From the NCBI GenBank assembly GCA_002245135.1, contig NGBS01001199.1:1-64000 (forward strand): 64,000 nt of DNA, written 5' to 3'. Both the position numbers and the translations under genes were made by a program. The notes under the pieces were generated by a model, which had not been told where the DNA came from, searched no databases, and saw nothing but the letters and a program-made list of their open reading frames with translations. Numbering within the stretch: the stretch's first letter is position 1; each line of letters begins with the position of its first letter. Origin of the DNA: Proteromonas lacertae (taxonomy: Eukaryota). Positions 34,644 through 57,322 of this stretch are shown here, piece after piece.

Positions 34644-34701
34644 TGTCTCCTAGACAAACGGCGTATTTCTAAATCTTCTCACGCCGTTTGTCTAGGAGAC
34701 A
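34644..34701. repeat. Perfect 21-bp inverted repeat with a 16-nt spacer
   Basis: TGTCTCCTAGACAAACGGCGT / ACGCCGTTTGTCTAGGAGACA. Confidence 0.95.
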
Positions 34702-36457: not shown

Positions 36458-38034
36458 CTATTCATTAGATAGTAATAATTTAATAATATACACTAAATAT
36501 TGCTTTTTATTAACTTTATCATCTCTAACTAATGCTAGACTCTTTTCATCTTGGCACATCTTTCTTTTCACAGCTGTAATAACCACATCTCCATGTTCTG
36601 GATTAACTAGTTTATTTCCTAATTTCTTAATGGAATCATCTCTCATTTTGTTATTATAATTGAAGTTTCTTTCGTTTATATAATCTTGAAACTGTTCTAT
36701 GATATTTCCATTTTGTGTTATATCTTTTTTGATTCTATCTTTATAATCTTCTTCTTCCATTATTGTTACTTCACCATTACCACTATTGCCACCATCATCA
36801 CTATTATCGCTATCATTACCATCTTCATCTACATCTATAACATGATCAGAACCACCATTATTGCCATTAACGCCATTAGCACCTTCTTCTTCTTCATATT
36901 CACTGTCTGCTTTAACTTCTTCGCCATCACTGTCATCATTACCATCATTATTATCACCTTCTATATTAGTATAATCTGGTTTAAACTTCTTATTCTGAAT
37001 CATCAACTCTTTCATGTCCATAAAGAATAAGGATCTTCCTTTACAATTTGTTCTTCTGCATCTATGATTATTAATTATTTCTGTTATTCTTTCCAAGCAT
37101 TCAGTCCAATAAACATCAGGATTATCAACCTTCATAGCTGCTATCTTTTCTTTAATGAATCTATTATATCTCTCCACTTTACCATTGCACTGTGGGTGTC
37201 TTGGCTTGCTATGCGCGATTATAATACCATATTTACTAAGCATATCTTTCATTAAAGCATTTTTGAATTCTTTACCATTATCCATCTGCATAATTTCAGG
37301 AGGGCCAAAGATTCTTATAAAAGATTGTACATTTTTCACTGTTTCTTTATCTGTTTTGCGTTTCTGGGCATATAACATGATAAAATTAGAGTAATGGTCG
37401 ATGACAGTTAAGATATAATGGTAGAGATCTTCTTCTTTTATGTTCGTGTAATCTTCATTACAATTGTCCATTTCTACAAGATCAATCAAAACTCTTTCTC
37501 TAGGTCTTGTAACAACAATAGGATGTGTTGGTTGTACTCTTTTAGCCTCTTTAAGTTTAATACAATCATAGCAGGTTGTCAAATAAGCTCTAATCATCTT
37601 TCTGTTAATACCATAATAACCATGAACTATATCATTAATTACATCTCTTAAAGATGATTCTTTACAATGGGCATTATCTCTATGTAACTTGTCTAAGAAG
37701 TCGAATGAATCTTCCAATTTAATGACTTCTCTTCCTTTAAAATACAGTTTACCTGTAGATTCATCGCAAGTGTAATAGCCTCTATTGGCTGAAGTTCCAG
37801 CTAAATCATGAAAGAACTTGTACTTATTCTTATCAAAAGCTGCACAATCACGAGTCTTTTTATTGTTCTTTCCCTTCGGCTTTACCACCTTCTCTGGTTG
37901 GTCATTTTTTGCCAGTAGCACCTTTATCTTCTCATAATAAAGAGTTTTATGATCGCTCTTTATGACGCTTTCTAGATTTAGAATGTCAGACCTATGATAG
38001 AGATTATAATAGGAATAGATAGAATGATATACAT
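36458..38034 (-). CDS. Retroviral-type (rve) DD35E integrase/transposase with HHCC Zn finger
   Basis: LHRDNAH..CYDC, LIDLVEM, LTVIDHYS, QMDNGKEF, HPQCNGKVER (35 residues between D and E). A GT-AG intron at 37992-38032 splits the ATG and extends the ORF in frame. Confidence 0.92.
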
Positions 38035-38769
38035 TTATAGAAATTATAGTAGTAGAATAGCTTTTATAGATATTTTACTGTGTTATTTTATAATACTCTT
38101 ACCCCCCCAAAAAAAAAATGATTCATTATTTAAGATGTAAGTGTAACAATATATATAAAAATATATCTTCTTTTTTCTTTTCTTTTGACTATTTTAAATT
38201 ATACCAATGTAATAATTTACCAATCATTCATTACAATTGTTATATGTGTTGTATTATTATAGTAATCATTCAATACAATTTACCAATAATTCTTTTTATT
38301 TATATAAATTCTGATTATTGAAAATGTATTTTTCATCAATTTGGTAATAATATTTCTAGAAGAAGAAAGAATAATTATCATCTTATTCTACTATAATTCT
38401 TCTAAAACCATTATCAACACTATTCCACTTTCATTTTTTTATTTGTATTTTTCATTTAATTTCTTTTCTTTCTCATATCATATTTTCAATCTTTGCTTCA
38501 TCTTGGGCACCAAATACTATCTCATCATATTGATCTTCAAATCTTGCTAAATTCATTATAAAGATATTATCTAATGTAAATGTCTTGGTTATTGCAATTA
38601 TCTTTAAAGTTTTGAATTAATATTAAACTCTCTTTGAAATTATCAATCACTTCATAATATACTAGAATTTTCATAAACATTGTCTCTTATACGTTTATAA
38701 ATTGTATAAATATGGGATATGGAGTAATGGGTAGTTTGAATAACATCTCAGTATTTAAAAATTCTTTTA

Positions 38770-40810
38770 TCTTTTCATTCAACTTTTGTTTATTGAATAT
38801 TTTCTACTGCAAATGCCACAGTATCTACTGTTTGAGTTTCACCTGCTTCAATATCGATTTGGGTTGGTTCTATTGTGAATATTCCATCATTATTTTTCAT
38901 TGACAAATCAACTGTTGTAGAAAATATTCCATTATTACTGAATTGAATTGTTTCACAATTACTAGCTTTTAAAGATGGATTGTTTTCTCTCATATTTATG
39001 TTTTTGCCTATTAATAACTGACCAAATTCATAATATCCTTTGTTCTTAATTTATCTCTTACTTATTATTTGTTGTTCATTCTTTTGTTTTATTGATTTCA
39101 TAAATATATCTTTCGGATTTTGATTAATTTTTGGATAATCACAAATACCACTGATTAGAACTTCATACGTTTTATCTTTATTAACTACCTCAAAGTGGAA
39201 ACAATAGTTTAATTTACCAGTTTCTAATTATTCAAATGTCACTTTCAATGGCAATTCTTTATCAGGTTCTAATTTCCATCTTGTGGCATTATTTTCATCT
39301 ATTAATTTATAATTACTTGTTGGTATTAAGGGTTTTCTTGGAATTTGCTTCTTAACTAATTGGAATACTACTGGAGGTGGAACTTTCCAATCTCCATATG
39401 TATTAAACAATGGAACTGTTTCTTTGATTTCTTGAATCATTATATCAATATCACTTTCACCATTGTTATTGATTATATCACATAATAAACCAACTCCAAA
39501 TGGTGGAGGTGGTGGTGGTTTTTCTTTTTTACCTTTCTATGAGTTTTTATCTCCTTTCTTATCAATTGATTTACTTCTTTTTCCTCCTTTCTTTGGATCA
39601 GATAAAGCTGATCTTTCTTCTACTACTGGTTCTGGTTCTTCAGGTGGTGGTAATTCCACTGCCAATTTATCACCTACATTTCTTACTTCAGTTTGAATTA
39701 CATTATAATCTTTATATTATACAATAAGTTATTCCTCCTTGTACTTTGATTGGAATTGCTAAATCATATCTTCCATAAGGTAAATCAGATTTCGCTGTAA
39801 TACTAGCTGTAAATGTCACTGTTGAACTTTCTAGTAATCTTTTCACTTCATCTGGAGTTAATGTATATCCACTCTCTTTTAAAGTTCTTCTTTCTATTCC
39901 GAAATTCACTGGTAAATTACCTATGTTAGTTATTGTAAATGTCTTCATCTTACTATCAATTCGAACTACATTACCAAAATCTACTACAACCTAAATGTAA
40001 ATTAGATATTTTCTTATTCGCCATTTTTGTTGTTTTGCCTGTTTTATTACTGATATTTGTTAAACCAGTTTCAGGTGTTTTTGTGGTTTTATCAACTACT
40101 CCTTCACTTTTTGAACCATTTACAGATGTTCCATTTAATTCTTTCTCTTTTCGAGCTAAACATAAATCAGCAGGATTTTGATTGTTTATTTCATCTAATA
40201 ATAAATCAATATAATATAATCTTAATGCTTCAAATTCTCTATCAACTGTGATTTATAATCCTGTTGTATTCTTTCCTGAAGGTAATTTGCTCGTATTTGT
40301 TCGTATTTATCATTCTGTTGTGAATTCTTACTTCTGACAGAAACTGATTTTTGACTATTTACTCTTGCAGATTACTGTTTCTTGTTTTCATCTTTTTCTT
40401 TTTCTTTACATTTTTCTTCTTCTGCATTTGTATTTGCTATTGTTGGTTCTTCACTATGTGGTGCTAATTCTCCTTCTAGTTTTGGTTCTGGTGGTAATTC
40501 TTTTAACCATGTGTTGGTGAATTAACTGGAACTCCATCTACAATTATTGGCTTTTCAGCTTCAACTGGTTTTTCTTTTTCTTCTTCTGTTGATGGTTGTT
40601 CTGGTTTTTGTTGTTGTGTTTCTTCTCCTTCAGTATTTACTGTATTATTATTACTTTCATCTATTGAAGATTCTACTACTTCAGGTAAAGATAGTTGGTG
40701 TTTGATTGGTGATGGTAAAGCTGGAAATGATAATGGATGTTCTGTATTGGATAATTCAATCAATCTATCAGCTTCTTCTAAGTAATATTCCCAATTATCT
40801 GGTATTCAGC
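38770..40810 (-). pseudogene. HYDIN: Second Hydin-like fragment, frameshifted and internally deleted
   Basis: VDFGN, FTITNIGNLPVNF..IPIKVQGG, VPPPVVFQLVK, RWKLEP, GICDYPKI, YEFGQLLIGK. Confidence 0.7.
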
Positions 40811-41010
40811 ATCATTCGCTTTGATATTTGCATAAATACCTGTTATATAAAGTAGAAAATCTATTGGAACTTAATGAGCTATTTCTATTACTAATTTCTC
40901 TATTACTGAATCTGGAATTCCTACTCTCATTTTAACATAGATTCTTTGTTGACTGTTACAAGGATAAGGTAATCACTCAGCTATGGAAACTCAACGATCT
41001 TGATAAGGAG

Positions 41011-41313
41011 GTGGAAGCCCTTACTGACTTTATCATCCAGCACGTCACCGACTTTGAGAACGTCGTAAGCAATCGCATAGGGATGATGACTAGAGCTAAC
41101 TTCAGAACCCTTTGCCGTGACTACTCCAAGATATATGATGAGCTGATATCCATTCTCAAGTACCCAGTCTTACAACTCCAGGACAATCTCTACGTACCAT
41201 TAGACTGGGACTCTTTCAAGAGCCTTAAGAAGTTCCATGATCAAGTTGATGATCTCAAGCAGTCCATAGCTAAGATTCAAACGATTGCTAACTCCTTCTT
41301 AAGCTTATTCTAA
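41011..41313 (+). CDS. Hypothetical protein (ORFan), GC-richer module
   Basis: Intact ORF in a compact intronless cluster. Confidence 0.5.
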   Translation: MEALTDFIIQHVTDFENVVSNRIGMMTRANFRTLCRDYSKIYDELISILKYPVLQLQDNLYVPLDWDSFKSLKKFHDQVDDLKQSIAKIQTIANSFLSLF

Positions 41314-41450
41314 TTTCCTTTACTTTGCTTACTCTCGTTATTGTTTCTGGGAATCCCTAAGCACTAGTTTTATAATAAAAAATACTGTTTAAGTAAAGCT
41401 TCAATGTTCTTGCTCCCACCAGTTGAGAAGGTGCTCCTCGGAGTCGATGA

Positions 41451-42530
41451 TCAGCTGGGAGACGTACTTCCTAGTCTCAATAAGAGCTCCTTGAAGGTGT
41501 AAGATGTAATCGATCCTTGACTCTTGATAGTACCATCTCGTTTCTTTGCTTTACGACTCTTACTATTACTCAAGACACTTGCGTAAGTGATTGCTTTAGT
41601 AACTTCTTCCTGGTCCTTGTGCTTCACTTGAGGAGCTTCTTGCGGTGTCTCCTTCTTGAACATCATCAACCAACAGTAAGTATGGAGTAGACACTCCTCC
41701 ATAATCTGGACGATCTCCTTGAACTTCTCTTGAAGCTTAACGATATCATCTTCATAGTAGTACAGTTCAGTAATGACTTTACTATCTAGTCTATCGCACT
41801 TCTCCTTCATAATATAGAACTGCTCTAGCAAGTGATCGACCTCATTGTCGGAGATGTTAACATCTCTCAAGAGGCTTCTTGTTAACTCTCGATCAGCAAA
41901 GTAGTTCTCCTCCACAGCATTAAAGTAAGTGTTGATCTGGCAGGCTCCGTTCTTGATAGTACTGATGTACTCACAGTGCTTACCAAAGAGATTGTAAGGG
42001 TCCAGGCAGGTTGTCATCCACGAGACTGCATTAACCATCAAGCAATGGAACTTAAGTCTTAGACTAGCAGCTTTCTTATAGACTGGATAGTAGATCTCAG
42101 ACTTACACTTTCCCATCGTGTACTCTGCTGATATCATTCCTTCCATGGAGTATAGGAATAGACATGCCCGGCTCTGGTAAATGCTCTTCTCTACGATCTC
42201 ATGATCCTTCAACTCACAGTCGGTAATGCGATGTAGGCAAGTCCTTAACACTTCCTTAGCTTTGATCACTGACTGATGAACTACCTTGAGTAACATCCTT
42301 ATTGAGCTGTGAACTTCCAAGTCACTCTCAGTGATTCCTTTGTTAGCATTGTCGATCATGATAAAGTGCGTATCCAGAGCTAATTGTTCACACTCCGATA
42401 ACTTCTCTTGAGCTTCCTTGACTAGAAGAGTCCATTCATTACCTTCTTGGATTCCACGATCGGCCTTAAGAATACACACTCTCGGGTAGATTGGTAAGAG
42501 TCTCTTATCTGGTTGATGAATTGAGATCAT
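41451..42530 (-). CDS. Hypothetical helical protein (359 aa)
   Basis: Long intact ORF; no recognised motif. Confidence 0.7.
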   Translation of the reverse strand: MISIHQPDKRLLPIYPRVCILKADRGIQEGNEWTLLVKEAQEKLSECEQLALDTHFIMIDNANKGITESDLEVHSSIRMLLKVVHQSVIKAKEVLRTCLHRITDCELKDHEIVEKSIYQSRACLFLYSMEGMISAEYTMGKCKSEIYYPVYKKAASLRLKFHCLMVNAVSWMTTCLDPYNLFGKHCEYISTIKNGACQINTYFNAVEENYFADRELTRSLLRDVNISDNEVDHLLEQFYIMKEKCDRLDSKVITELYYYEDDIVKLQEKFKEIVQIMEECLLHTYCWLMMFKKETPQEAPQVKHKDQEEVTKAITYASVLSNSKSRKAKKRDGTIKSQGSITSYTFKELLLRLGSTSPS

Positions 42531-42570
42531 GTTTCTGGAGTAGGCAAGAAATTTGATAATAGCTTATCGG

Positions 42571-43155
42571 CTATGAGCTCTTCCTCTGAGGGTGTCGATG
42601 ATGATGATGATGATGACTTCTTCGATCCGATGAATCTACAGCCTGATGCTTTACGTACTTTCTCTTGACCCTGAATGTGAGCTGACGACATCTCTTGAGT
42701 TCTTCTCGTTGATCAGGAGTAAGTCGATGAGCTTCTCGGTTAAAGATCTCCTCGGGACTTAGAGTTCTTTCAGTCATGCTCCCATCCTTGTTAAACTTAA
42801 AGATCATTATCGTGGCGTCCAGATCGATAGTGCAATACTTACACTTCCTATGAGAGTCTTGGTCATTGTCAGAGTCACTTCCATCCATAGAGTTGTATTC
42901 CACTCCTTGATAAATTACCTTACTGTACTTTTGCTTACCACTGATAAACAAGTCCTCGGAGGATTCATTGAGTGCCTCAATGCTTCTTCGGGACTTCTCT
43001 ATCTCCTTTAAATCTTGATCCAACTTCATTTGAATCTTGCTCCTTGTTCTCTCATCCACCTTCTTCACATTCACGTGGACGTGTTTATTCCTTTGCTTAC
43101 TCTCACTTACTTCATCGATGAGTTCCCAGACTTTCTCGGGATAGATGATCATCAA
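42571..43155 (-). CDS. Hypothetical protein (194 aa) with a His-rich tail
   Basis: Intact ORF, co-oriented with its neighbours. Confidence 0.6.
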   Translation of the reverse strand: MMIIYPEKVWELIDEVSESKQRNKHVHVNVKKVDERTRSKIQMKLDQDLKEIEKSRRSIEALNESSEDLFISGKQKYSKVIYQGVEYNSMDGSDSDNDQDSHRKCKYCTIDLDATIMIFKFNKDGSMTERTLSPEEIFNREAHRLTPDQREELKRCRQLTFRVKRKYVKHQAVDSSDRRSHHHHHHRHPQRKSS

Positions 43156-43192
43156 GTCTCCATCCTTCCAATAGCCCGAGGTAAGCGATTGC

Positions 43193-43708
43193 TTATAAAC
43201 CGATCGATAGCTTATAGCGATCAGTGTACTTAGGATTCACTGTTGAAGTCTTGAGCTCTCCGGTCTCAGTAAAGAACTTTGCTTTCAATGAACCTAGTTG
43301 ACTTCTACTATCCTTCATCAAGAGATAGAACGGGTGCTGACGATCGCAACCTGCTGGAACATCCAGGTAGATTCCATCACTCACAGTCTCATTGAACTTC
43401 CTTGAGTTGAATACTTCTACTTCGATCTTGAGGTCCCATAAGAATCGTAAAGCATAACCTTTGTGCAGATCTCGGTACTCGAATATAGATGGGTAGTCGT
43501 ACCTCCGAAGCTTCGTTGAATCTCTGCATCCACAAACGAAAGGAGTGCATCGATAGATTGGAGGAGTAAGGACTGGGTAATGTTGATAGTCGATAGCTAA
43601 GTCCTTGGAGATCTCAGGTAATGTCTTCTCCGAGGATTGCATGGTAGGGACTGTCATCTTTATCGATGAGCTATTGATGGGAATCATGCTCTTCAGGAAT
43701 TCATTCAA
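43193..43708 (-). CDS. Hypothetical protein (171 aa)
   Basis: Intact ORF, co-oriented with its neighbours. Confidence 0.6.
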   Translation of the reverse strand: MNEFLKSMIPINSSSIKMTVPTMQSSEKTLPEISKDLAIDYQHYPVLTPPIYRCTPFVCGCRDSTKLRRYDYPSIFEYRDLHKGYALRFLWDLKIEVEVFNSRKFNETVSDGIYLDVPAGCDRQHPFYLLMKDSRSQLGSLKAKFFTETGELKTSTVNPKYTDRYKLSIGL

Positions 43709-43757
43709 TGAAGGGAGTAGTTCAACTTTTCCTATTGAAATAACCCAAGTGCTTACA

Positions 43758-44111
43758 ATGCCTAAGAAACTTACCCAGGAGAGTGATGAAGAGATCTACG
43801 AGGTTGATGATCCCTTTAACAATGAACCTGACGATGACTCCTTGAAAGCAATTCACTTGAATCTTCCATGGATCCAGATTGCAGGCTTTGCAAGTGATCT
43901 CCAGAACTACTACCATCAAAGGGTAGCTAACAACATTAACTATTCTGAATCAGGTCCTGATAGCTTCATCCTCCTAGATGATCTTCATCGTCTATACGCA
44001 GAAGCCAAGTGGTTAGCAAGAGATCTAAAAGCTGATCTGATGGATGCTGAAGGTACCTTGGAGGAACGCGTTGTTTCAAAGTCCAAGGGTGGTAAGAGAC
44101 GAAGACTCTAA
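43758..44111 (+). CDS. Hypothetical protein with a basic C-terminus (NLS-like KGGKRRRL)
   Basis: ATG at 43758 chosen to avoid overlap with 43193-43708. Confidence 0.5.
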   Translation: MPKKLTQESDEEIYEVDDPFNNEPDDDSLKAIHLNLPWIQIAGFASDLQNYYHQRVANNINYSESGPDSFILLDDLHRLYAEAKWLARDLKADLMDAEGTLEERVVSKSKGGKRRRL

Positions 44112-44265
44112 CTAGCTTAACAACACCCCGAGATAATTCACTTGCTTTATCATCACCTTCTATCTTATTGGGATCAATTTTACATGAGTAAAATCATTTA
44201 TACATGATTGCTTAAGACCGAGAATTCATCTAGTTACAATTTTCCAAACGATCCCGACAAAGTCT

Positions 44266-45042
44266 ATGAGTCCCAGGAAGTCATCACGCAGATCATCATC
44301 ATCAACCAACTCTAGCATTGATAAGTCATCCAAGGAGGGTAAGAAGCTCCGAGTAAAGAAACAAGGAGCTAGTAGTAGAACCATAAGGATGTCATCACCT
44401 ATGATTACGGAGCAAGGTAAAGCAACACTCCGGGAAGAACTCATTAAAGCCATTGTGGATAACTTAAGCTTATTAGCAACCATTGCTCCAGACTACGTTA
44501 ACGATGAACCTTTAAGTACACCACCATCTACTCCTAAGAGACTTACAAGGAAGAACACAGCCCGAGGAAGTAAACAACAACAACAACAACCAAGGAAGAT
44601 GAGCCCAATTAAAGTACCGAGGACATTAGTAGCTACTCGTAAGGCCGGGAATAAACGAGATGTTAGAGTTCATCCAGGATGCGATCGTAAGATACCTTTA
44701 AAGTCCAAGGATGAAGTTAAGCTTATCAAGACTTCTTGTAATGAGACTGGAGGACACGATGCTATCCAGGTAAAGGATCTCGCTTCTTGTAATGGCACGG
44801 TGATACTAGTTAGTCTAGATGGACAGATGATTATGGAGATGGATCCAGACCACAACCAGATAAGACTTCATTTGGATCCTGACTTTAACCTAGCAAAGGA
44901 ATCCATGGAGGTATGGGACAATGCATTCTACGTTCCTTATAATGATACTAAGAACTTCTTCCGAGTCTGTGATGATGCTTTAACCTTGTTGAACCTCCCG
45001 AGAATGGCATCTACCTTCAAGAAGATGGTGAACCACAAGTAG
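44266..45042 (+). CDS. Hypothetical protein with a basic S/R/K-rich N-terminus
   Basis: Intact 258-aa ORF. Confidence 0.65.
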   Translation: MSPRKSSRRSSSSTNSSIDKSSKEGKKLRVKKQGASSRTIRMSSPMITEQGKATLREELIKAIVDNLSLLATIAPDYVNDEPLSTPPSTPKRLTRKNTARGSKQQQQQPRKMSPIKVPRTLVATRKAGNKRDVRVHPGCDRKIPLKSKDEVKLIKTSCNETGGHDAIQVKDLASCNGTVILVSLDGQMIMEMDPDHNQIRLHLDPDFNLAKESMEVWDNAFYVPYNDTKNFFRVCDDALTLLNLPRMASTFKKMVNHK

Positions 45043-45369
45043 TTACCTTATAAGCTTAGTTCATGTACTTACGACAGCTGTCTTGTCTTGGGATGATAAA
45101 CCTTTTCCTTTACCTTGATGAACTTTAATATCAGCTGATGAAGACCTCGGTAATGCTCTTATTGTTGATTGATAAGAACCCTCTTAGCAAAACAATACCG
45201 TAAAGACAAGGGATAAGTAATTACTTTAAGGAACATCAAGAGCTGTAAGCTTATTGATAACATCACCTGTCTTGTATAGTAGCTCCTCCAACTGCTTATC
45301 ATCAGGAGTATAAACAACGACCAACTTGTTGATGATCTTCAAGTAGCTCTGATTCAACGATCGGATACT

Positions 45370-46296
45370 TTACTTCTGTTCATCATCGTGATACTTGAGT
45401 TCTTTCATCAGCTTTAGGCACTTTACAAGATGACCTTGAATGTATACTGACTCCTTCTTCTTAAGAGTTGATGATATTCCCATGGAGTTGCAATAACTTT
45501 TCTTGGACTCCTTAGTTAAGCAGGTGAGTTGGATGTGATCATTAATGGAACCTAGGTACTTCTTAAGGCAGTAAGGACAGAGACCACAGGAAATGTTCTT
45601 ATCGGTGACTCTAGCAGCAGTAATCACGGGATTATCAACATCGATCACGTCCATTGGATTAGCAATCACGGTATAATGATATTGAACTTGATCATCCTCC
45701 TCGGCTTCTAGGTAAAGTAAGTAAACAAAACGATCAGGAGAAGTCATCGGTAAAGTACAGCTACTGCGTCTGGCTAATCGTAAATGCGATCCCTTCAATT
45801 GATAGATGTGAACACCCACGTTATTGTTCTCTTCAAAGGAGTCGATGAGTCTGGAAGATGATATTGGATTTGCTATAGGGTGTTGGTAGTTAATGATGTA
45901 CTTGCTTAAGTACTTGGAGTACATCTCGGGATTCTCAATGGCTGCGTTCTTACTGAGTTGATGATGATGAAGAGCTGCGATTGCGGAGTAAGCAAAGCTG
46001 AACATAGCAATACGTACATTTATAATACTGCTAGGATCAATCACTTCCTTGGGCACCTCCAGCAGTGCTTCGATGAAATAAACTTTGTTGACCCGTGACT
46101 TCTTAGCTGGATGATCCTCAGTTGCCTTATGAAGTTCCTTATGTGATCTCTTGACCTTACCTTCGGAGGATGATTCTACCAGTGGTGTGTTGTTGCTTAC
46201 CTGGGATAGTTGAGAAGCTAAATTGAAGTCCCTGGAGGAGTCTTGTTCTGTGACTACTTTATCATTCAATGGAGATGTTGCTTGGGTTGGATCCAT
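45370..46296 (-). CDS. Stand-alone vOTU-like plus Zn-finger domain homologous to the pPolB N-terminal region
   Basis: IINV..MFSFAYSAIAALH..FEENNNVGVHIY..VYLLY..HYTVI..CPYC..HIQLTC aligns by eye to polB VINL..MCFLFSVAAGLH..FEQLNHITINIF..VNLLI..HYMVI..CQYC..HQKENC. Confidence 0.75.
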   Translation of the reverse strand: MDPTQATSPLNDKVVTEQDSSRDFNLASQLSQVSNNTPLVESSSEGKVKRSHKELHKATEDHPAKKSRVNKVYFIEALLEVPKEVIDPSSIINVRIAMFSFAYSAIAALHHHQLSKNAAIENPEMYSKYLSKYIINYQHPIANPISSSRLIDSFEENNNVGVHIYQLKGSHLRLARRSSCTLPMTSPDRFVYLLYLEAEEDDQVQYHYTVIANPMDVIDVDNPVITAARVTDKNISCGLCPYCLKKYLGSINDHIQLTCLTKESKKSYCNSMGISSTLKKKESVYIQGHLVKCLKLMKELKYHDDEQK

Positions 46297-46347
46297 TTAT
46301 ACTTCACTAGGTAAATGATTTCAACTATTCAAGGCTATCGAAGTTAC

Positions 46348-46716
46348 CAATTGTAAACTCCCGGTTCCACGATTGGTTTCCACGGTTCAATTAAAAGCCC
46401 TTACAAGGTCACCAGCGTAGCAAGGAGAGTCAAGAGCATGATTAGAATCATCACCTCGAGGTAACCAACACTTCTAGATAGCTTCCAGGAGCACCCGTAG
46501 GAGATCGTCTCATAGATAGGTATAGGTAGGTATAGGAAGGTATTGATAGGTATAGAAATAGCTTAGAGGAGTCCCCGTAGGAAGTAGACTCTGTTGAGAA
46601 GTAGACCCTGTTAGGAGGAATCCCGTAGGAACCTTACGTAAATGGGACTATGGTACATTATGCCAGAGTTCTAACGAGTTTTCTAGGAGTCCGTCCCCTT
46701 CTAGATTCAGAGTTGA
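46348..46716 (+). repeat. Near-identical direct copy of the right terminal repeat 60960-61328, truncated inside the hairpin
   Basis: Constant offset of 14612. Confidence 0.95.
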
Positions 46717-48176
46717 ATACTTTAAGCAGCCAGCTGTTTACTTCAACTACGAGAAGATCCGAGACAAGGGAAAGGTACTTAAAGTATTCGGAGGAGTTGC
46801 TAGTGGGGCAACTCCTCTGAAGGAGCTTCATCACTCTATCCGACTAGTCCAGGATGATCTCATCGGTAAGCCCATATCAACAAGAGCAATCGTGGACTTA
46901 GGAAACCTCATCGGTAGATGCATAGTCAGTGGTAATGTCCGAAGATCCGCAGAGATAGCCTTTGGAGAACATCACGATGAAGAGTTCCTTAACCTCAAGG
47001 ACTATGATCTCAACCCAGACAGAAGCTCCTTTGGATGGGCATCCAACAACAGTGTCTTTGCAATCAAAGGAATGGACTATAGCAATATAACTGAACGCAT
47101 ACGGAAGAATGGAGAGCCTGGTATCTGCTGGTTGAAGAACATGCAAGAGTATGGACGGCTAGGCGATCCAAAGAATAAGAAGGATCGAAGAGTTCTCGGT
47201 GGTAATCCTTGCCTAGAGCAATCGCTGGAGTCTTATGAGATGTGTTGTCTGGTAGAGACGTTTCCTTATCGTCATCATAATCTAGGAGAGTTCTTAAGGA
47301 CATTGAAGTTTGCTTACCTATATGCCAAGACTGTGACTCTGGGGATGACTCACTGGCCAGAGACCAACAGAGTGATGTTAAGGAATAGAAGGATCGGATG
47401 CAGTATCAGTGGATAGCGCAGTTCATTGATAAGTACGGAGTTGATATTCTCAAGACTTGGATGGAAGAAGGCTATTCAACTATCCAACACTGGGATAGGA
47501 TCTACTCCGAGTGGTTCTGCATTCCACGATCAATCAAGACAACATCGGTAAAGCCAAGTGGTACAGTCAGTCTACTTGCTGGAGCAACTCCAGGGATTCA
47601 CTTCCTCAGAGCAACTACTACGTTAGAAGGATTAGGATAGATAAGAATAGTCCATTAATTAGAGTCTTGAAGCATGCAAAGTATCCGATTGAAGATGACT
47701 TCTATTGCCCAGAGACAACCTCGGTGATCTCCTTCCCAGTCGAAGTAAAAGGAGTTAGAACTATCAAGGAGGTACCGATGTATGAGCAGCTGATGTTGCT
47801 AGCCTTCGTTCAGAAGTACTGGGCTGACAATCAAGTGTCCTGTACGATTACCTTTGATCCGAAACTAGAAGGGCCCCATATTCAACACGCACTAGACTAC
47901 TTCCAATATCAACTCAAGGGAGTATTATTCTTACCTTCAATTGCCACTGACCAGATGAAAACAACCTACCCACAGATGCCTTATGAAGAGATCTCCAAGG
48001 AGGAGTATTACCGACTCCTACAACAAGTATCAGAACCTGACTTTATCAGAAGCTCCTCAAGGGATTATAAGATCGATCTAAGTCCCGAGGAAGTTCAAGG
48101 AAATGAACTAGATGGAGACTACAATCAACCATTCCCGATTGAAGTAAGCTATTGTGATGGTGATCATTGCCTTTAA
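46717..48176 (+). pseudogene. nrdJ: Class II (adenosylcobalamin-dependent) monomeric ribonucleoside-triphosphate reductase, 5'-truncated, two 1-nt frameshifts
   Basis: FGGVASG, VSGNVRRSAE, GEPG, NPCLEQ, RNRRIG, TSVKPSGTVSLLAG, WADNQVS, YPQMPYEEI, C-terminal YCDGDHC. Confidence 0.93.
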
Positions 48177-48353
48177 GTAAATTACCTAAGTGATCTTAAA
48201 GGTTTTATGTAGGGATGGACAATAATCAAAGTAGATATCATCGGATAGGAGATGATAAGGGACGTGATAATAAGCATCTCCGATAGATCCTAGACGATGA
48301 TTGCAGTAGCCCGTAAACAACTCAAGGTTATTAACAATAAGTGATTAAGGAAC

Positions 48354-49433
48354 TTAGAAGTATCTGGATAAGGTCGGTATTTGTTGGGCCTGTTGCTGAT
48401 AGACTCCTCCGAATGATGGGACGTAAGCAGCATAAGGATTGTAGTTAGAGTAGTAGTTCATTGATGCTGGAGGAGTAGGAAAGGATGATTTTGTAGATCT
48501 CTTACCTTTAACAGTCTTAGTAGTTTTCAAAGGAGCCTGAATAGGAACCTGCATGGGAACTTGTAAAGGAATTGATGGGGAAGTACTTGCTGGTGTTGCT
48601 AGTCCAGAGGTTGTTGGATTGCCAGACAAGGAACTTACTATCGGTGAATTGAAGTAAGTGTATGAGGGTGTAGAACTGGATGATTGATTCTCTTGCTTTA
48701 CCTTAAAGCTATCGGTAGTTACTTGAATATCATCTTTGGGAATAGATGTTGGGGTTGGTAATGAAGTAGGAACTGATGTAGCTGACACTGATGAATCAGA
48801 TACAGAAGCTAGTTTAAGATCGTCAAGGATCTTATGAATGTAAGTGTCCTGACTCTTAACTTCATCGTTGAGGAGGTTGCTAGAGTGCTTTATAGTTTCC
48901 AAGATCTTGTCCACGATCTCTGATGATAGACGTACTTCCTCGGGAGTGAGCTTATCAGCTTTTGCTTTAGTCTCTTGAAGTAGTTGATAGTAGGAACGAA
49001 GATGTTTTCGTAAGTCAGCGTATATGGCTACATAGTCAATGATCTTGTCCTTGCTGCGGATGGACTTCAAGGTCTTGGTTAAGTTCTTGATAGTGACATC
49101 TTTGGATGACTGTGCCGAGGAAGTTGTCTTGCCTCTGAGGAGCTTCTTCTTAAGTGTAGTGCTAGCAACAGTAGGAGATGCCTTCGATGATTTAGATATT
49201 ACTGGTGCCTTGAGTGCTAAGTGCTTATTAAGCTTACGCTTCTTGGAGTCATTGGAATTGGTGGATGACTTCATAGCCTTACTACGCTTAGCAATTGAAC
49301 GTGAATTCTTTACCTTTACGGGAGTGATGATAAGTACCTTGGACTTCTTATGAGTAGAAGTAGCCATAGGCTCACACTGTTGTAATTCAAGGCTAGAAGA
49401 AGTACGGGTAGATAATGCTTGTTGAGTATTCAT
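48354..49433 (-). CDS. Hypothetical K/S/T-rich protein (359 aa) with a Y/Q-rich tail
   Basis: Long intact ORF, low complexity. Confidence 0.65.
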   Translation of the reverse strand: MNTQQALSTRTSSSLELQQCEPMATSTHKKSKVLIITPVKVKNSRSIAKRSKAMKSSTNSNDSKKRKLNKHLALKAPVISKSSKASPTVASTTLKKKLLRGKTTSSAQSSKDVTIKNLTKTLKSIRSKDKIIDYVAIYADLRKHLRSYYQLLQETKAKADKLTPEEVRLSSEIVDKILETIKHSSNLLNDEVKSQDTYIHKILDDLKLASVSDSSVSATSVPTSLPTPTSIPKDDIQVTTDSFKVKQENQSSSSTPSYTYFNSPIVSSLSGNPTTSGLATPASTSPSIPLQVPMQVPIQAPLKTTKTVKGKRSTKSSFPTPPASMNYYSNYNPYAAYVPSFGGVYQQQAQQIPTLSRYF

Positions 49434-49964
49434 AAGGCAAAGTCTCTCTAGGAGGATCAGAAAAAGTTAAATACAGAGATGCCTGTTAAGATAAGTTCAT
49501 CCCAAGAACAACGCCTGGTAAAAGTTAATCAAAGAGTATTTATCGATAGAAGAAGTTACTTAAGGTATAGAGTTCATAGCAACCCAAAGAGCTATCAGCA
49601 TCATCATTAGAAGGATGGTAATCAAGATACTTCGGATCAATCTACAACAACTACTATGCTCAATAGCTGGGTGATCTTCAAAAAACATCTGGACATTTAA
49701 GATAAGGAGGATTCAAAGGACGCTTACCAGCACTTCGTCATGACAGAAGAACTCACGGAAGCTATAAGTCCAGGAACGACAACTTCTTTCAGCTATAAGC
49801 ACTAAGCGATCAAAGTCAAAATCCATTGCTCGGTAAGATCCAAGGAAATGAACGATTAAGTAAATTGGTAACTCCCGCCGGAAGAAGTTCTGAAGTGTTA
49901 ACAATTCCGAAGTGAGTTATGAATCGACATTCCCGGCATTGATCAATTTCCTTGCCTTTCAATC

Positions 49965-50837
49965 ATGGTCATCTCAACTACTACTAGATCGATTGCTCCT
50001 TACCGTCCTCCTTTACTTATCGGTGAATCTACTCCCGAGAATGATCAACCTCAAATAGCCTCCATCAAAGCAATGCCTTATGAACACACTCACATGGAGT
50101 ATAGCAACAGCCCGCAATTCGTCAATGGATTACCAGGACTCACCAGTCAAAAGAATCGATCTTCCTATAAAACAGCCTTCAATCAACTCTTAGGCATTGC
50201 TCATCCTTACTACTACAACCAGGGGATCTCCATCGCTATCCTCAAGACAATCATTGTACTTAACTTTGATGATACCTTATTCCCAACCTCCTATATGATG
50301 AAGAACTACTGAGAAGACTTCGATCAGAGATGTTCCCTTAACAACCTCGGGGTTGAAGATCATAGCATCATGCAGCAACTGGACTATACCATCGGTCAGC
50401 TCCTTATGCATTGTATGAGCCTATCTTCAAATCTACCGATAGTGATCCTTACCAATGCTACTCGAGATCATGTCTTTAACATCACTGAGAGATTTTACCC
50501 AGCCTATGTATATCAACTACTGCTCGATGAATATAACTTCTTCGTCCTCTCGGCAAAGGAACGATATGGACAATTGAGTTACAATAACAAGATGTGGAAG
50601 GTGGAAGCACTTCAATGGATCATGAACTACTACTTCGATGGTCCGATAACAAACTCCTGGGAAGATGACTTTGCCGTCAATGTTCTATCAGTTCCAATCC
50701 TTAAGAAGGCGATTCAACTAGAAGTTGGCCAGGCTGCTGATGGTAAGAAGCTCATTGGTACCATAGAGAAGTTGAACCTCAACCTTACTTCCTTCTGTAG
50801 AGATCTCCGATCCTTCCACGTCCACTTAAAGAAGTAA
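49965..50837 (+). pseudogene. HAD-superfamily-like protein with an in-frame TGA (50310-50312)
   Basis: TIIVLNFDDTLFPTSY motif-I-like (first Asp is Asn), VILTNA, LSAKERY..WK; the frame continues into ORF 50370. Confidence 0.65.
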
Positions 50838-51169
50838 TTACTTAGACTTTGTTTATTGTTTGTTGTCTTGGGGATTGCTTAAATAACACTAAGCGTCCCC
50901 GTAAATGATCTCCTCAAGACAACAAGGCAATGAACAATTGTAAAGACACTTCAAAGGAACCTCTAAGAACAACACCGAGATAGAATAGAACAAGAGATTA
51001 TCAGGTTTAAGTAATGCTAGTTAGTCCTCACCTGAGGATTCAACATCCGTAGCTTCAGTAAGGTCAAGATCACTGAGAAGATATTCAGTAAGTACTTAAC
51101 CTTCAAGGTTGGCTGGAGGAAGTCCATGTACTGCTTCATCTTCTTACTAGCAGTAAGCTGCTCGATGTC

Positions 51170-51595
51170 TTAGCCAAGGAGATACTTCAAGGTTCTTAAT
51201 GCACCAGAGTAGAGGATAAGTGGCATGTAATGGCCCAGTGGGATGTATCCATAGTCTTCTTCCTTGCTATTGTTGTATCTGATAAGCTTACAGCCTTTCT
51301 TCATCCTGGTCATGATATGTCTTGGACCTTTAAGTAAAGTCGTAGGAAGCAGATTGAGCTTCATAAGGTGACAATGGAACTTGGCAGAAAGGTTCTTAAA
51401 GTATACACAGTCATCATCAGGAGTAGGATCGGTATACCTGCTCATCACTCCGAGATTCCTTATCTGTTGCTTCATGGAGATGAGGTACATCTTGATGAAC
51501 TCATCGGAAAGATCCTGGTTGTCATCCTTCTGGTTAAGGATCACGTACTTAGCGTCTTCATTCAAGGTGATCTCCTCCGACATGTTTATAATCAA
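51170..51595 (-). CDS. Hypothetical protein (141 aa), duplicate of 15777-16202
   Basis: Identical translation. Confidence 0.55.
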   Translation of the reverse strand: MIINMSEEITLNEDAKYVILNQKDDNQDLSDEFIKMYLISMKQQIRNLGVMSRYTDPTPDDDCVYFKNLSAKFHCHLMKLNLLPTTLLKGPRHIMTRMKKGCKLIRYNNSKEEDYGYIPLGHYMPLILYSGALRTLKYLLG

Positions 51596-51619
51596 GGTAA
51601 GTTATCACAGACACTAGCT

Positions 51620-51904
51620 TTATCGGGTATTGTCAGCTATGAAGTCTCTTACCATGTCTATGATCTCAGCATTGAAAGGATCATCATCATCGTCTTCATC
51701 CTTGGAGTTAGTGATTGTAAGTGAAGATTTATGAGGTTTAGGAGGGAAAGGAGGAGGAACATCATCATCAACAGCAACAGCCATCTCAGCCTTCAACTTC
51801 TTATACTCCGACTTAAGCTTAATTCTGAACACCTTAGTGTCTTTCTCATCGCTAGAAGATTCCTCTAAGGCATTGATAGGTCTGGTTCTCTTCATGATAT
51901 TCAC
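51620..51904 (-). CDS. Hypothetical protein (94 aa), duplicate of 16227-16511
   Basis: Near-identical translation. Confidence 0.55.
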   Translation of the reverse strand: MNIMKRTRPINALEESSSDEKDTKVFRIKLKSEYKKLKAEMAVAVDDDVPPPFPPKPHKSSLTITNSKDEDDDDDPFNAEIIDMVRDFIADNTR

Positions 51905-52359
51905 AGATCAGAAAAGACTCAATGGAGATTTTAACAATTGTAAAGTCCCTGTTCCACGATTCTATTAAAAGCCCTTACAAGGTCACTAGCGTAGCAAGGA
52001 GACTCTAGATCGTGATTAGATTCATTGTCTTTAGATGGCCAACACTTGTAGATAGCTTCCAAGAGTCCCTGTAGGAGATAATCCTGTAAAAGATCATCCC
52101 GTAGGAAATCGTCCCGTAGGGAAGAAGACCTACAATTGATTAATTAATCGATGTTATTACTTCATGGCATATTTGATGAAAATCATCCGCCATTTAATGC
52201 TGAGAAGGATAAATCCTATGAAATTTTGTGTACTTGCTACACATTATATGATCTGCTTAAATTAACAATAATATTTAATAAACTGAAAAAATTACATGTC
52301 TTAATAAAGATTTAAATAAGATTTTCTGATAAAAAAATCGATTGATCACCAAAACAACC

Positions 52360-54058
52360 ATGTGAAGTCACTGTCAAGAATATTGTTGTTACAGAGTCTG
52401 AAGAAGAGAAAATTAGAGCGCTGGTAAATCAATCTTGTAGTATTGGAGAAATTGCCTTAAAAATGGCAAGAACCAAGAGTAGTATTTGGAAGTACTTACA
52501 AATTATGGGGTTGAAGACAACCAAAGCCAAATCAAGTATTTCACCACCTAAGGTTAGAAGAGGGAGAAAGCCAATTATTTTAAACTGTATCATTAGTGGG
52601 CAAGCTGTTAGAGATTATATCTTGAGAAGTCAAGATAATGGCATTACAATTCAATCTGCCAAAGCACTCAGAAATGTGCTACTGAAGAACAGCTTAATCC
52701 CCTTATCAGTATCATTAAGTACAATTCGTCGTTACTGTAAATTATGGAAGATCTATTTTGGAAATAGTGGAGTTTGTCCAAGCTTGACCGAAAAGAACGT
52801 TGAAGAAAGATTAATGACAATATCTCAAAACATATTCTTGGATAATAAGACGATTATGTTCTCAGATGAGTCGATGATTAGACTTGAAATGTTAAAAGTG
52901 TTGGATTAATTATCACTGAAAATGTTATTAAGTATGGGAATATATTCAAAGATAACGTAACTAAGGGAATAAATTCAGTTAGATATTGTCGATTTTTAAA
53001 GAAAACTTTACCGCCTCTAATTAAACAGCATCCATTAGTAAATCATCAGAGACAATGTTATTTCTTACAAGACAATGTCAGCATACATAAAAGTAGTTAT
53101 ACCACAGAATATCTTCTGTGCCATTTGTCATAGTTGGCCATTTGTCTACCAGACACTTTTAAAACAAACTAAATGTATATTCTTACTTGTCTTGATGAAA
53201 AATTGTTACTTTTATACTTACTTTGTTATATGACCTACCTCTGCAGTAAACTTTTTTGTTAATATAAATAGTTTAAATATTTGCGCCATTTGTTTTCTAG
53301 AAATTTTTGAATCAAACTAAATGCATATTTAGCTAATATAGACTAAAATCCATTAGCTGAAATGATTAGAATATAATAATTATTAAATCTTTCTATATAA
53401 AAAAGAAATGTAAAAAATAGGCTTGAGTGAGGCTTGATTCTATATTTTCTATTTTCATTTTAAATGTCTTATGATCAACATTAAGTTGTTCTAATCATTT
53501 CAGCTAATGGATTTTAGTCTATATTAGCTAAATATGCATTTAGTTTGATTCAAAAATTTCTAGAAAACAAATGGCGCAAATATTTAAACTATTTATATTA
53601 ACAAAAAAGTTTACTGCAGAGGTAGGTCATATAACAAAGTAAGTATAAAAGTAACAATTTTTCATCAAGACAAGTAAGAATATACATTTAGTTTGTTTTA
53701 AAAGTGTCTGGTAGACAAATGGCCAACTATGACAAATGGCGCACAACATCTTCAAAGGAACGGTTGAAAACCTATCAGACATCCACCGTTTTCTCCAGAC
53801 TTAAATCCTATTGAAAAGGTCTGGGCAACTCTAAAACACAAGATTAGTGAAGATGAAAACAATTTCAAAGACTTAGATAGCCTAGAAGAAGCTGCAAAAA
53901 GAATTTGGAATGAAATAATGTCAAGCCAAGCCACCAGACATAAATATGCTTTTAGATATCGTGAAGTATGTATGGCATGTCTTTACAAACAGGGTGACTT
54001 CGTTCTAGACAATGACATTAAACGAATTAGAAAGATAACAAACATCCCAGAAGAGTAA
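52360..54058 (+). pseudogene. IS630/Tc1-like DD34E transposase, disrupted
   Basis: HTH SIGEIALKMARTKSSIWKYL, IMFSDES, LQDNVSIH, PFSPDLNPIEKVW; interrupted at 53117-53748. Confidence 0.88.
53117..53748. mobile_element. Foldback MITE of the Ginger-like family with 5-bp TSD TCTTC
   Basis: About 255-bp near-perfect inverted arms, right end GGCGCACAACA, TCTTC at 53112-53116 and 53749-53753. Confidence 0.92.
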
Positions 54059-54847
54059 TTAGCCTAAAAGAAGGTTTTATATAATTTTTGTAGGGGATTT
54101 TCATTTGATTTTATGTTGGCCAAAATTAATACATATAATATAGTAGCCATTTAAAATATTAAATCAAAAGAATTTCAACTAGTTAGCGTTTAAAATAATT
54201 CGAAGAATATATAGTATATAAATGGGACTCTGGCATATTGTACCATAGTCCCATTTACGTAAGGTTCCTACGGGATTCCTCCTAACAGGGTCTACTTCTC
54301 AACAGAGTCTACTTCCCTACGGGAACTCCTCTAAGCTATTTCTATATCTATCTATGAGACGATCTCCTACGGGTACTCCTGGAAGCTATCTAGAAGTGTT
54401 GGTTACCACGAGGTGATGGTAATGAAGAAGCAGTGATCTCTTTCGGAGTATGGGTAAGAACGTCTCAGAGGAAGCTTCCTTACCAAGGACGATGTTGCGG
54501 AGCAATATCGGACTTGGATAGGAAGGTTCCGTCGTAGACGTTCTTGTCCATGCCCGGAAGAAGAACTGCTTTCTTCATTACCAGGATCATTGAGAAGGTA
54601 CTTTCATTTGATCATCATCCAGGGTTGTTGAATCTCTTGGAGTTGTTGCTGCCCAACAAAGCAAGGTAAACTATTTGCACCATGGTTGGGCAGCTCCGAA
54701 GGTGGTCACTGACTATAGTTATCCTCTTGCTTAGACTTCCTCTATCTATCTATTACTTTCTCATAATAACAGTCTAGGTATCGGCTTCTCCTGTAATGTT
54801 TTTGATCAATCCCAAGACAGAACCTTATCAGGTAAAGCTTACTATCA

Positions 54848-57322
54848 TTAGCTGAATAAGGAAGTACAAATGAATGTTGTAGTAGCTGTAAATGAAACAG
54901 AACCATTGTGATTGTTGGTGTAGTTGAAGTTATCATAGCCATTATAAACGAAGTAGTGCCAGTATGCTGTTGAGTCTGTACGTTTTATCTTATAAGTCCA
55001 GTAAGTGTTTCTCTTATCGAAATGGAAGACCTTTCGGAACTCAACGAATTCTTTCTTATCAGGGTCGGTGAATGCAATGCCGGCATAGGCATTAACATCC
55101 ACTGATCTTCCGCTAGTCGTTGTCATGGTAAGCTCAATTCTATTTGGATAAGCAGTTAAAGTTCCCTTCATAGGCCCACCATAGCCATACTGTAAAACAT
55201 CCATATCAATATTGATCGCCCTAGCGATTACCAGATCTTGACTCTCAAGGACATACTTCCACATTGAAGTCAAGGTCTCATTTATCTGATTAGCTACCGT
55301 GGTAATCTCCGATGATCCATCTCCTTGAGATGCCAGGCTTTCTACTGATGTCTTCAACTCCGTTAACTTCTTCTGGACGTCCTGAACATTGCTATCGACT
55401 GAGTTGATCTTACTTAATTGAGCTGCACTGGTAAAGTTGTTTACTTGAGTCACAGCCAGGTTGTTTAGGTTGTTGACTTTGCCTTGGACTTCAATGACTC
55501 TTGTCTGGCAGTCTCCTATCTTTGAATGTACTTCATTGACCTTGGTTAATTGAGCTGGTGAACAGAAGCTATTGACATTCCCGGTATTGAATCCATCGAT
55601 CTTGGTTCTGATAGCAGCTGCATTGTTGATAGCTGTATCGATCAGTCCTTTACGAGTATTGTTAAAGAAGCCATCCAAGTTCCTTCGTAGGTTGTCTTCT
55701 TCAGTCCTTCTAGCCACGCCGCAGGTTGCATTCACATCATTGATACTTAGAGAATCCACCTTGATCTTGATTGCATCGGTGTTGGCCTTAGTTGTATCAA
55801 TGAAGTTACCACGACCTTCAGTACAGAACTGGTTAATACTCTCCTTGTTGAGGTCATGGACACGTTCATAACACTTATCTATCTTCTCCGATCGATCCGA
55901 AGTACAGAAGTGCTTCACAGCAGTGTTGGTCTCATCGATAGCAGCACTTCTCGGGATAGTACAAAACTCCTTGATCGCGTTGTCAGCATCGTCGATCTCC
56001 TTAGTTCTCTTATCGGTAATGAATCCTTTGATCAGTTCCTCAATGCTCTTGACAATGGTAAGTCTCTCCAAGGAGCAGTAGTTGTTAATGTCTTCGATGG
56101 CTATGCCGGTGATCAGCTCATGGACTTTATCAATCTTCTCCTTCTGTGAGCTACTACAATACTGGTTGATATCATCGATATCTATCTTACTTACAATATC
56201 CTTGGTCTTGTCAATAGCGGTAGCTCTCTCCTCAGTGCAGAAGGTATTCGTCTTGTCAGCTTCTCCATTCAACCCGGCGATCTCTTCCTCCATAGCATTC
56301 ATCTGGTTCTTAAAGTCCTTGTTGTAACCATTGGCAATCTCAATCTCTTGTAAGACCTCCTTGAACTTAATCATGTTGTTGTTAATCACAGTATTGATTG
56401 CCTTGTACTCCTCGTAGTTGTTCTTCATCTTGATCAACTCCTCAGAATCTACTTTGATCTGCTTCTCTAAGTCAGTGAGCTTCGTAAGGCTCTTATCATC
56501 CACCGTAGTGATGTACTTGATCATATCATAGACGTTAACATCCCCGATGTTGAGACTCTCACATAATGACTTCAACAAGGTACTGAGACGATCCAATTTC
56601 TCATCCTCTGATCCCTTCAATTGATCGATTGAAGTATTGGTGGATTCAAGGGCATTGCTTACATCCTCCATGCTCTTATACAACTCTGGTAATTGCTTCT
56701 CCGTGTACTGCTTAAGTTCATTGCTGCAAGTAGCAATATTGCTCAAGGTTGTAATAGTCGTATCTCCGAAGTCTTTAGGGATCTTGTTGTTAAGTAAAGT
56801 ACCTAGGTTCTTAACTTCCTGGAGCTTCTGATCGATACCTTCAATCTTATCAGTCTCATCTAGCACTTCCTTTAAGGTCGATTGAATAGCTTTATGATCT
56901 GGTTGTAAGGTACCTTGAAGGTACTCATGGAGTTGTTGATGATCAGTCTCTAGCTTAGCCAACTTCGTAGATGACTCCTCCGAGTGATCATCCAACTTTC
57001 TCTTGATAGCTGTTGTGGATGAGGTTACTTCTTCTTGTTGCTTCTGATTGATACTGACGGGTGTTCCTCGGAGGACTTCTTGGATAGTGCTTACCAATGG
57101 AGGATTGATCTTATCATAGTCTATCACGGCCTTGAGTTCACCAGAACCCAAGGCCTTTTGAATCACTTCCTGGGAGTCTTGAAACAACATGTCCTTATCA
57201 TACTTAGCAACAACCTTCCCATCTATCTTTTGCTTCACATCGTAAGTAGTCTTGTCGATAGTATTAAGTAACCTTAACATCTCCTCATCGTTCTCCCGTA
57301 AGTTGTTCCCGGTGTTGAACAT
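54848..57322 (-). CDS. Fibre/spike-like coiled-coil protein (824 aa) with Cys-containing repeats and a beta-rich C-terminus
   Basis: Heptad-rich body, about 9 repeats of [IV]NxFC[ST]xxxxxxID, aromatic beta-rich last about 120 aa. The CDS is secure; the function is inferred. Confidence 0.7.
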   Translation of the reverse strand: MFNTGNNLRENDEEMLRLLNTIDKTTYDVKQKIDGKVVAKYDKDMLFQDSQEVIQKALGSGELKAVIDYDKINPPLVSTIQEVLRGTPVSINQKQQEEVTSSTTAIKRKLDDHSEESSTKLAKLETDHQQLHEYLQGTLQPDHKAIQSTLKEVLDETDKIEGIDQKLQEVKNLGTLLNNKIPKDFGDTTITTLSNIATCSNELKQYTEKQLPELYKSMEDVSNALESTNTSIDQLKGSEDEKLDRLSTLLKSLCESLNIGDVNVYDMIKYITTVDDKSLTKLTDLEKQIKVDSEELIKMKNNYEEYKAINTVINNNMIKFKEVLQEIEIANGYNKDFKNQMNAMEEEIAGLNGEADKTNTFCTEERATAIDKTKDIVSKIDIDDINQYCSSSQKEKIDKVHELITGIAIEDINNYCSLERLTIVKSIEELIKGFITDKRTKEIDDADNAIKEFCTIPRSAAIDETNTAVKHFCTSDRSEKIDKCYERVHDLNKESINQFCTEGRGNFIDTTKANTDAIKIKVDSLSINDVNATCGVARRTEEDNLRRNLDGFFNNTRKGLIDTAINNAAAIRTKIDGFNTGNVNSFCSPAQLTKVNEVHSKIGDCQTRVIEVQGKVNNLNNLAVTQVNNFTSAAQLSKINSVDSNVQDVQKKLTELKTSVESLASQGDGSSEITTVANQINETLTSMWKYVLESQDLVIARAINIDMDVLQYGYGGPMKGTLTAYPNRIELTMTTTSGRSVDVNAYAGIAFTDPDKKEFVEFRKVFHFDKRNTYWTYKIKRTDSTAYWHYFVYNGYDNFNYTNNHNGSVSFTATTTFICTSLFS

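Follow-up and report, generated by a model that had tools for sequence, protein, structure and literature searches.

A 64,000-nt stretch of DNA from Proteromonas lacertae (assembly GCA_002245135.1, contig NGBS01001199.1, positions 1 to 64,000; hereafter the window) carries foreign, ORFan-rich, Polinton-related units that have shared ends and different cargo, and this feature is real and non-random. One of them, unit U, is devoid of detected core genes and integrated with a 6-bp target-site duplication (TSD), and its asymmetric, conserved ends are reused on unrelated cargo in truncated blocks, which we call A to D. The window is AT-rich eukaryotic DNA; the blocks have a GC content of 39-44%, compared with 20-30% in the host flanks, which agrees with an earlier reading of the same DNA made without database searches (the sequence-only reading). 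Our preferred interpretation, held tentatively and at a little under an even chance, is that the blocks are integrated, helper-dependent linear DNA units, either segments or satellites and predicted to be about 6-7 kb long, of a single Polinton-related virus lineage. All sequence results are based on the window, and databases were searched for relatives.

Unit U and the shared right end

Unit U (54208-61464; 7,257 bp) is complete, as the sequence-only reading had it; it is a non-autonomous element with terminal inverted repeats (TIRs), TA..TA termini and the TSD GAAGAA on both sides (the chance of such a 6-mer match is about 7e-4). Its termini are the same 25-mer in inverted orientation, and the terminal 18-mer is found in the window at 54208 and 61447 only. 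The TIRs, of about 220 bp, are alike in 186 of 191 ungapped columns (97.4%), with one 30-bp indel, plus the terminal 44 bp. The left end (54208-54418, minus strand) has a short terminal hairpin (z -4.3); both the 30-bp insert of the right end and its long palindrome are absent here. By inspection, the short hairpin equals the long version minus the stretch between two short direct repeats. The right-end module (60953-61464, plus strand; 512 bp) consists of 105 bp specific to that end, the TIR from 61061, a palindrome and an 11-nt tail. This palindrome (61251-61453; 203 nt) is imperfect, with 100-bp arms that differ at six positions, five of them transitions, and folds into a hairpin of -111.5 kcal/mol (z -25.7). 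Because A and U have the same sequence in the first arm, the mismatches between the arms must be older than both insertions. Next to the module lies a sub-terminal non-coding region (60235-60952) made up of three degenerate repeats of about 130 bp (69% mean column identity), followed by 3.6 copies of an 18-bp near-palindrome.

The right end recurs in every block. In block A (40950-46716) it occupies 46341-46716 (plus strand), is identical to U 60953-61328 at 373 of 376 positions (99.2%) and is cut inside the first hairpin arm; block B (46717-52130) is fused directly to this cut (46716/46717). A variant end in B (type B; 51931-52130, plus strand) is truncated before the hairpin, and its inner part at 51931-52079, like the corresponding 16538-16686 of block C, matches U 60956-61117 in 129 of 149 ungapped columns (87%), with a score of 167 against 28 for the best of 200 shuffles. 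Block D (16721-17528) has a third variant, cut at the first hairpin arm, the outer part of which (17454-17534) matches U 61192-61274 at 69 of 81 positions (85%; score 88, shuffles at most 27); its inner boundary is defined by the match between D and fragment E (13569-13755, plus strand), which repeats the inner part of this end at 94% identity. End divergence between B or D and U/A is 13-15%, compared with at most 1% between copies within one lineage, and the right ends fall into at least three lineages.

These matches share one orientation, as had been claimed, but what A, B and C have in common is the right end of U, with some 105 bp that lie inward of the TIR, rather than the TIR as such; B and C carry the inner part of it alone, and D's match to U is to the outer part. 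Block C (14771-16720) is a 99.4% duplicate of 50164-52113, differing at 12 of 1,950 sites, with one synonymous and seven non-synonymous codon changes, and it has the same premature stop in a HAD-like gene as B. These codon changes and the shared stop make C a likely neutral genomic duplicate of B, and the common orientation of the blocks counts for little. In A, B and C the left edge lies inside a reading frame, all of A to D stop inside the end module, and left end, terminal tail and TSD are missing from all four (outside U the terminal 18-mer does not occur).

The point at which the shared end gives way to unrelated cargo is fixed: in A, B/C and U the switch occurs at U 60953-60956, within 3 bp, at a near-palindrome. 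Inward-facing open reading frames (ORFs) start just inside the ends, at 45 bp in A (a vOTU-like gene), 36 bp in B (a 91-aa ORF) and 20 bp in D (a 97-aa ORF); for comparison, a start of this kind lies within 50 bp at 427 of the 17,133 positions in the cargo (2.5%). When 459 stop-to-stop frames were compared all against all by BLASTP, the cargoes of A, B, D and U showed no cross-match apart from the C/B duplication, which upholds the claim that the cargo is otherwise unrelated. By contrast, two anole Polintons that are 11.65% apart are reported to have kept eight ORFs in both (PMC3014272). A fixed inner boundary combined with unrelated cargo fits shared-end modules.

Cargo, core genes and composition

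Block A, left-truncated and adjoining a HYDIN-like host gene, contains, besides a partial ORF at its left edge, ORFans of 359, 193, 164, 156 and 258 aa and the vOTU-like gene (45370-46296, minus strand). The 308-aa product of this gene is assigned, by motif and position, as a stand-alone vOTU-like domain with a Zn finger, of the type seen at pPolB N-termini; a Ser is aligned at the catalytic Cys position of the conserved helix. A search of 1.84 billion representatives returned two hits in all, the best being the protein P0121 (E 4e-4). A profile of P0121 and the pPolB N-terminal region in the window gave the 308-aa protein 41 bits, against at most 8 for 1,000 shuffles, a test that is partly circular in that P0121 was found with the 308-aa protein as query; direct BLASTP against the window pPolB was not significant (E 0.11). 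A vOTU domain in the N-terminal region of pPolB is reported to be active in polintons, whereas bidnaviruses and adenoviruses have it in an inactivated form (Krupovic et al., 10.1101/2024.03.18.585575). Judging by these similarities, the vOTU-like gene probably ties the block family to pPolB elements.

Block B carries a partial ribonucleotide reductase (RNR), a 359-aa S/T/K-rich ORFan, the HAD-like gene, ORFans of 137 and 91 aa and the variant end. The RNR (46717-48176, plus strand) is a class II (B12-dependent) ribonucleoside-triphosphate reductase (TIGR02505, E 6e-32) that is missing about 204 N-terminal residues and has two frameshifts. Proteins that are unnamed or carry a Blastocystis name are 68-72% identical to it, and viral contig L001 reaches 65%; in an ORF reading of that contig (1-10482), the same class II RNR type stands beside a giant-virus-like capping enzyme and transcription factor. 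In a tree of 29 rows, a choice made among 120 proteins plus 98 loci (47 rows went into an earlier tree), the RNR of B is sister to a clade containing Blastocystis at a support of only 74/34; it sits on a long branch, and the trees do not resolve its position, so that capture of the RNR from the host is conceivable. Among 18 + 80 RNR loci scanned, none had another element gene or end (174 frames against 98 loci). Reading the in-frame stops as TGA=Trp was considered and rejected by inspection, the Trp of the RNR motif being Trp already under the standard code. If the RNR is the first gene, a full B is predicted to be about 6.5 kb, close to the 7.26 kb of U.

The HAD-like gene (49965-50837, plus strand) has an in-frame TGA that is common to B and C. 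Of the cargo labels in the sequence-only reading, RNR agrees with TIGR02505, vOTU-like is assigned as above, and HAD-like is presumed from a resemblance in motifs, scans of Pfam, PHROGs, NCBIfam and PDB having returned no member of the HAD family. Block D contains the 97-aa ORF and is fused to fragment F (17529-17830, plus strand), a decayed GC-rich coding piece with a short motif that may resemble one of minor-capsid proteins; searches of libraries and for relatives with F were without hits.

Unit U itself has two intact ORFans. The first (54848-57322, minus strand; 824 aa) has a coiled-coil-like body, seven [FY]C[TS] repeats and a beta-rich C-terminus, and homologue searches with it gave none; it may be fibre-like. 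The second (58538-59317, minus strand; 259 aa) has N-terminal CxxC clusters and may be Zn-finger-like. ORFs of these lengths were absent from 200 Markov simulations (longest 164-188 aa). The remainder of U consists of long decayed or non-coding stretches.

Neither pPolB nor rve integrase was matched in U or A-D by scans that found rve and PolB elsewhere in the window, and about 18 kb of unique cargo from four different positions gave no core-gene hit. There was likewise no library match in the units to a major capsid protein (MCP) of the double jelly-roll type, a minor capsid protein or a packaging ATPase, with the limit that divergent MCPs can escape detection; the earlier claim that polymerase, integrase and MCP are missing stands to that extent. 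Single-sequence folds in the capsid test had pLDDT values of 34 and 43, too low to use, and a fold search returned nothing at E<=0.001. Nucleocytoviricota hallmarks (MCP, A32, family B polymerase, RNA polymerase, VLTF3) were not detected in the units. Scans with the end motif gave no match in viral contigs and none in metagenome contigs, scans for loci related to the HAD-like gene, to the vOTU region of PolB, to P0121 or to fragment F confirmed nothing, 0 of 20 proteins looked up in a collection of 15 billion were present, and Rfam gave no match.

Composition nevertheless groups the blocks, in addition to their GC content. AAAA is at 0.11-0.31 of expectation in all of them, and GATC at 2.2-2.7 times expectation in A, B and U and 1.4 times in D. 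Trinucleotide correlation with the interior of U is 0.93 for A, 0.95 for the RNR, 0.98 for the rest of B, 0.88 for D and 0.72 for F, a short piece, with 0.64 for the end module itself; seven other regions of the window, including the local Polinton, give 0.29-0.67, and 88 fetched loci of at least 2 kb reach at most 0.71. Over 40950-52130 and 54208-61464 together, we also observed one GCGC where 34 are expected, three CGCG for 34, and an enrichment of GATC (165 for 68). The motif GTTAMCAATT, which marks the boundary between shared end and cargo, has nine exact copies in 19.5 kb of element DNA and none in the other 42.5 kb (0.8 expected); with one mismatch allowed, it stands upstream of 4 of 13 element gene starts, interior genes included.

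Neighbouring host genes and elements

The HYDIN-like gene beside block A is in two separated parts on the minus strand, 38793-40805 and 10758-13073 (Pfam PF22544, E 1e-12), with single in-frame TAA, TAG or TGA codons between otherwise unbroken frames; these stops could reflect a ciliary gene in decay, very short introns or sequence errors. The presence of the gene suggests a host protist that has, or once had, flagella. A broken pPolB gene (1-4379) belongs to a separate, AT-richer Polinton-like element (1-5700). This comprises a 1113-aa pPolB N-terminal ORF, the frame of which runs on with frameshifts, and an ORF of 193 aa; its end region has palindromes at 5207-5329 and 5509-5589 and 20-bp tandem repeats. 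An rve integrase gene (36458-38074) lies in the region 34600-38100 together with an adjoining 295-aa ORF, which may be Ulp1-like (Pfam gave no corresponding match), and a palindrome of 114 bp (34616-34729); a TIR/TSD pair was not found in this region. Both local elements were considered as direct parents of the blocks and rejected, since composition and ends differ.

A Tc1/mariner remnant (52346-54055) contains an inserted foldback element of 647 bp (53107-53753; 274-bp arms, 97%), with related ends at 9866-10167 and 34003-34304. A host repeat of about 500 bp has inverted copies at 6255-6850 and 13756-14262 (97.5%), to one of which fragment E is fused. Between 17900 and 33100 there is a dense cluster of some 15 very AT-rich glycosyltransferase-like ORFs that includes two acyltransferase-like genes, one of them with Pfam Acyl_transf_3 and weak SGNH hits, and a methyltransferase gene is found at 8521-9204.

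Competing explanations and known systems

If the blocks are helper-dependent units, their terminal modules could act as cis signals for replication (hairpin- or protein-primed), inward transcription and integration. Polymerase, capsid and an rve-type integrase would come in trans from a helper unit outside the window, and the 6-bp TSD would be the work of this integrase. Once the units are inserted, their hairpins may serve as break points, and end-joining with local duplication would then produce the fused, truncated patchworks A-B and C-D-F. TSDs of 6 bp are described as typical of Polintons and of IS3EU/GingerRoot (PMC10045372), and terminal palindromes have been proposed as replication primers in the virophages, and also the Polinton-like viruses (PLVs), of Halocafeteria (10.64898/2026.07.28.741278). 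The sequence-only reading had offered a multipartite virus or a set of cargo satellites; the fixed boundary and unrelated cargo speak for this, and the incompleteness of A-D against it. For A-D, which are fragments, we infer the status of segments. A true multipartite, Polinton-derived linear DNA virus of a protist, with hairpin-ended segments of about 6-7 kb that have different genes and integrate singly, is conceivable, and we think it rather unlikely. It would have a fibre segment, a vOTU/ORFan segment and a B12-dependent RNR segment, and new cargo may be swapped in at the fixed palindrome that lies immediately within the right end.

Several points weigh against helper-dependent units. Only one of the four distinct units (U) is complete from TIR to TIR, no helper with the composition of the blocks occurs in the window, and searches of IMG/VR and of metagenome contigs turned up no relative. 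A and B, with their dense small ORFans and an RNR, resemble accessory regions of large viruses, and A, B and D might each represent one end of a long genome. As the boundary motif also stands upstream of interior genes, deletion guided by it could yield the same fixed boundary and gene adjacency. Divergent capsid genes are said to be easily overlooked (PMC10120064), and fragments of monopartite virophages/PLVs that have TIRs and TSDs and lack core genes have been described (10.64898/2026.07.28.741278).

Such points lead to an explanation that we regard as almost as likely as the preferred one: that the blocks are pieces from the ends of larger endogenous viruses, at least three of them, which are monopartite, related to one another and variable in their terminal genes (PLV- or virophage-like or bigger linear DNA viruses). 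U would then be the product of an internal deletion, with its join at the repeated palindromic motif, that re-integrated in trans. In that case A and U might both derive from a single larger parent, with B and D as ends of sister viruses. All of A-D are left-truncated, the motif at the join is found again within cargo and stands in tandem copies where U is joined, ORFans are dense, and the relatives of the class II RNR include L001 with its giant-virus-like genes (in the ORF reading); palindromic TIRs beside TSDs, nesting and core-less fragments are also described for the Halocafeteria elements (10.64898/2026.07.28.741278). However, those elements are reported often to have replication and integration genes near an end, and here some 18 kb from four positions contain no core gene; ends that are 87-99% identical have no gene in common, and the strong degeneracy of U's sub-terminal repeats is more in keeping with an arrangement of long standing than with a recent join. 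The simpler version, in which all blocks are deletion derivatives of one consensus element, was named by the sequence-only reading as the outcome that would contradict it; in the case of B and D, the divergence of the ends excludes such a parent reduced by simple deletions.

That the ends belong instead to a non-viral DNA transposon family of the IS3EU/GingerRoot kind, non-autonomous copies of which took up viral DNA in Pack-MULE style, we consider improbable. TA..TA termini with a 6-bp TSD are the described signature of that family (PMC10045372), and an rve gene is present at 36458-38074, but the local rve element and the ends of U have nothing alike beyond 11-12 bp. Moreover, the end motif also precedes interior cargo genes, gene starts sit right inside the ends, and one source would be needed for all of the captured DNA. 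Least credible of all, in our view, is that the A-B and C-D-F fusions are chimeras which arose in assembly, at repeats and hairpins that the blocks share, and that the look of modules goes back to this. Artefacts of this kind have been reported for protist endogenous viral elements (EVEs) (PMC10120064), the joins are in or near hairpin arms, and the frameshifts in the RNR and the local PolB could be read errors; yet the joins are non-homologous, the differences between C and B are scattered over 12 sites, and the decisive boundaries between end and cargo lie inside blocks, with sequence that differs between lineages.

Should a segmented, integrating virus of this kind be confirmed, it would show how a Polinton-type genome can split into segments with shared ends, gain genes of large viruses (RNR) and stay latent piecemeal, and EVE surveys centred on the MCP would miss most of such a virus. 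Even on the rival view of larger viruses, the blocks would represent an unsampled virus lineage that is almost wholly ORFan.

Structural features of the blocks have parallels in several known systems. IS3EU/GingerRoot elements are described with the same TA..TA termini and 6-bp TSD (PMC10045372), but U is without a DDE transposase, the local rve element does not have the same ends, and the cargo here is virus-like and the ends form hairpins. Constellations of fungal virus-like elements also combine many co-resident linear DNAs, TIRs, different cargo, and helper and dependent types; they are reported as free plasmids, most with their own DNA polymerase (PMC13348850), whereas the units here are integrated and polymerase-less. 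With Polintons/Mavericks the units share TIRs of hundreds of bp, a 6-bp TSD and a pPolB-type vOTU. They differ in the lack of detected pPolB, rve, ATPase, protease and MCP, in size (7.3 kb against 15-30 kb) and in the vOTU domain, which here stands alone and is without the catalytic Cys, while that of Polintons has a catalytic Cys and His and is fused to pPolB. The virophages and PLVs of Halocafeteria seosinensis show palindromes inside TIRs next to TSDs, a GC contrast, nesting and core-less TIR/TSD fragments; in contrast to U, with its 203-nt palindrome and no core gene detected, they are described as monopartite, with MCP, minor capsid protein, ATPase and a 52-nt palindrome (10.64898/2026.07.28.741278).

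No segmented, integrating, Polinton-like virus of a protist was among the top matches listed in the open-access literature; the known multi-segment DNA viruses of pPolB ancestry among those matches are the insect-associated Vesanto virus and its relatives, the bidnaviruses. Set against the bidna-like arrangement, the window has shared right ends on four cargo types and one complete unit, with no pPolB or capsid unit detected among its units. Vesanto virus, found in Drosophila samples, is reported to have as many as 12 bidna-like segments, which measure 3.3-5.8 kb, resemble one another in their inverted terminal repeats and include some that encode PolB (PMC8363768), whereas the blocks here are integrated (U with its TSD) in a microbial eukaryote and carry an RNR and no polymerase that we could find. 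As far as it is described there, the two are nonetheless alike in having several kb-sized linear units with different genes, similar terminal inverted repeats and pPolB-derived genes, some of them very divergent, and in both the units may be either segments or satellites.

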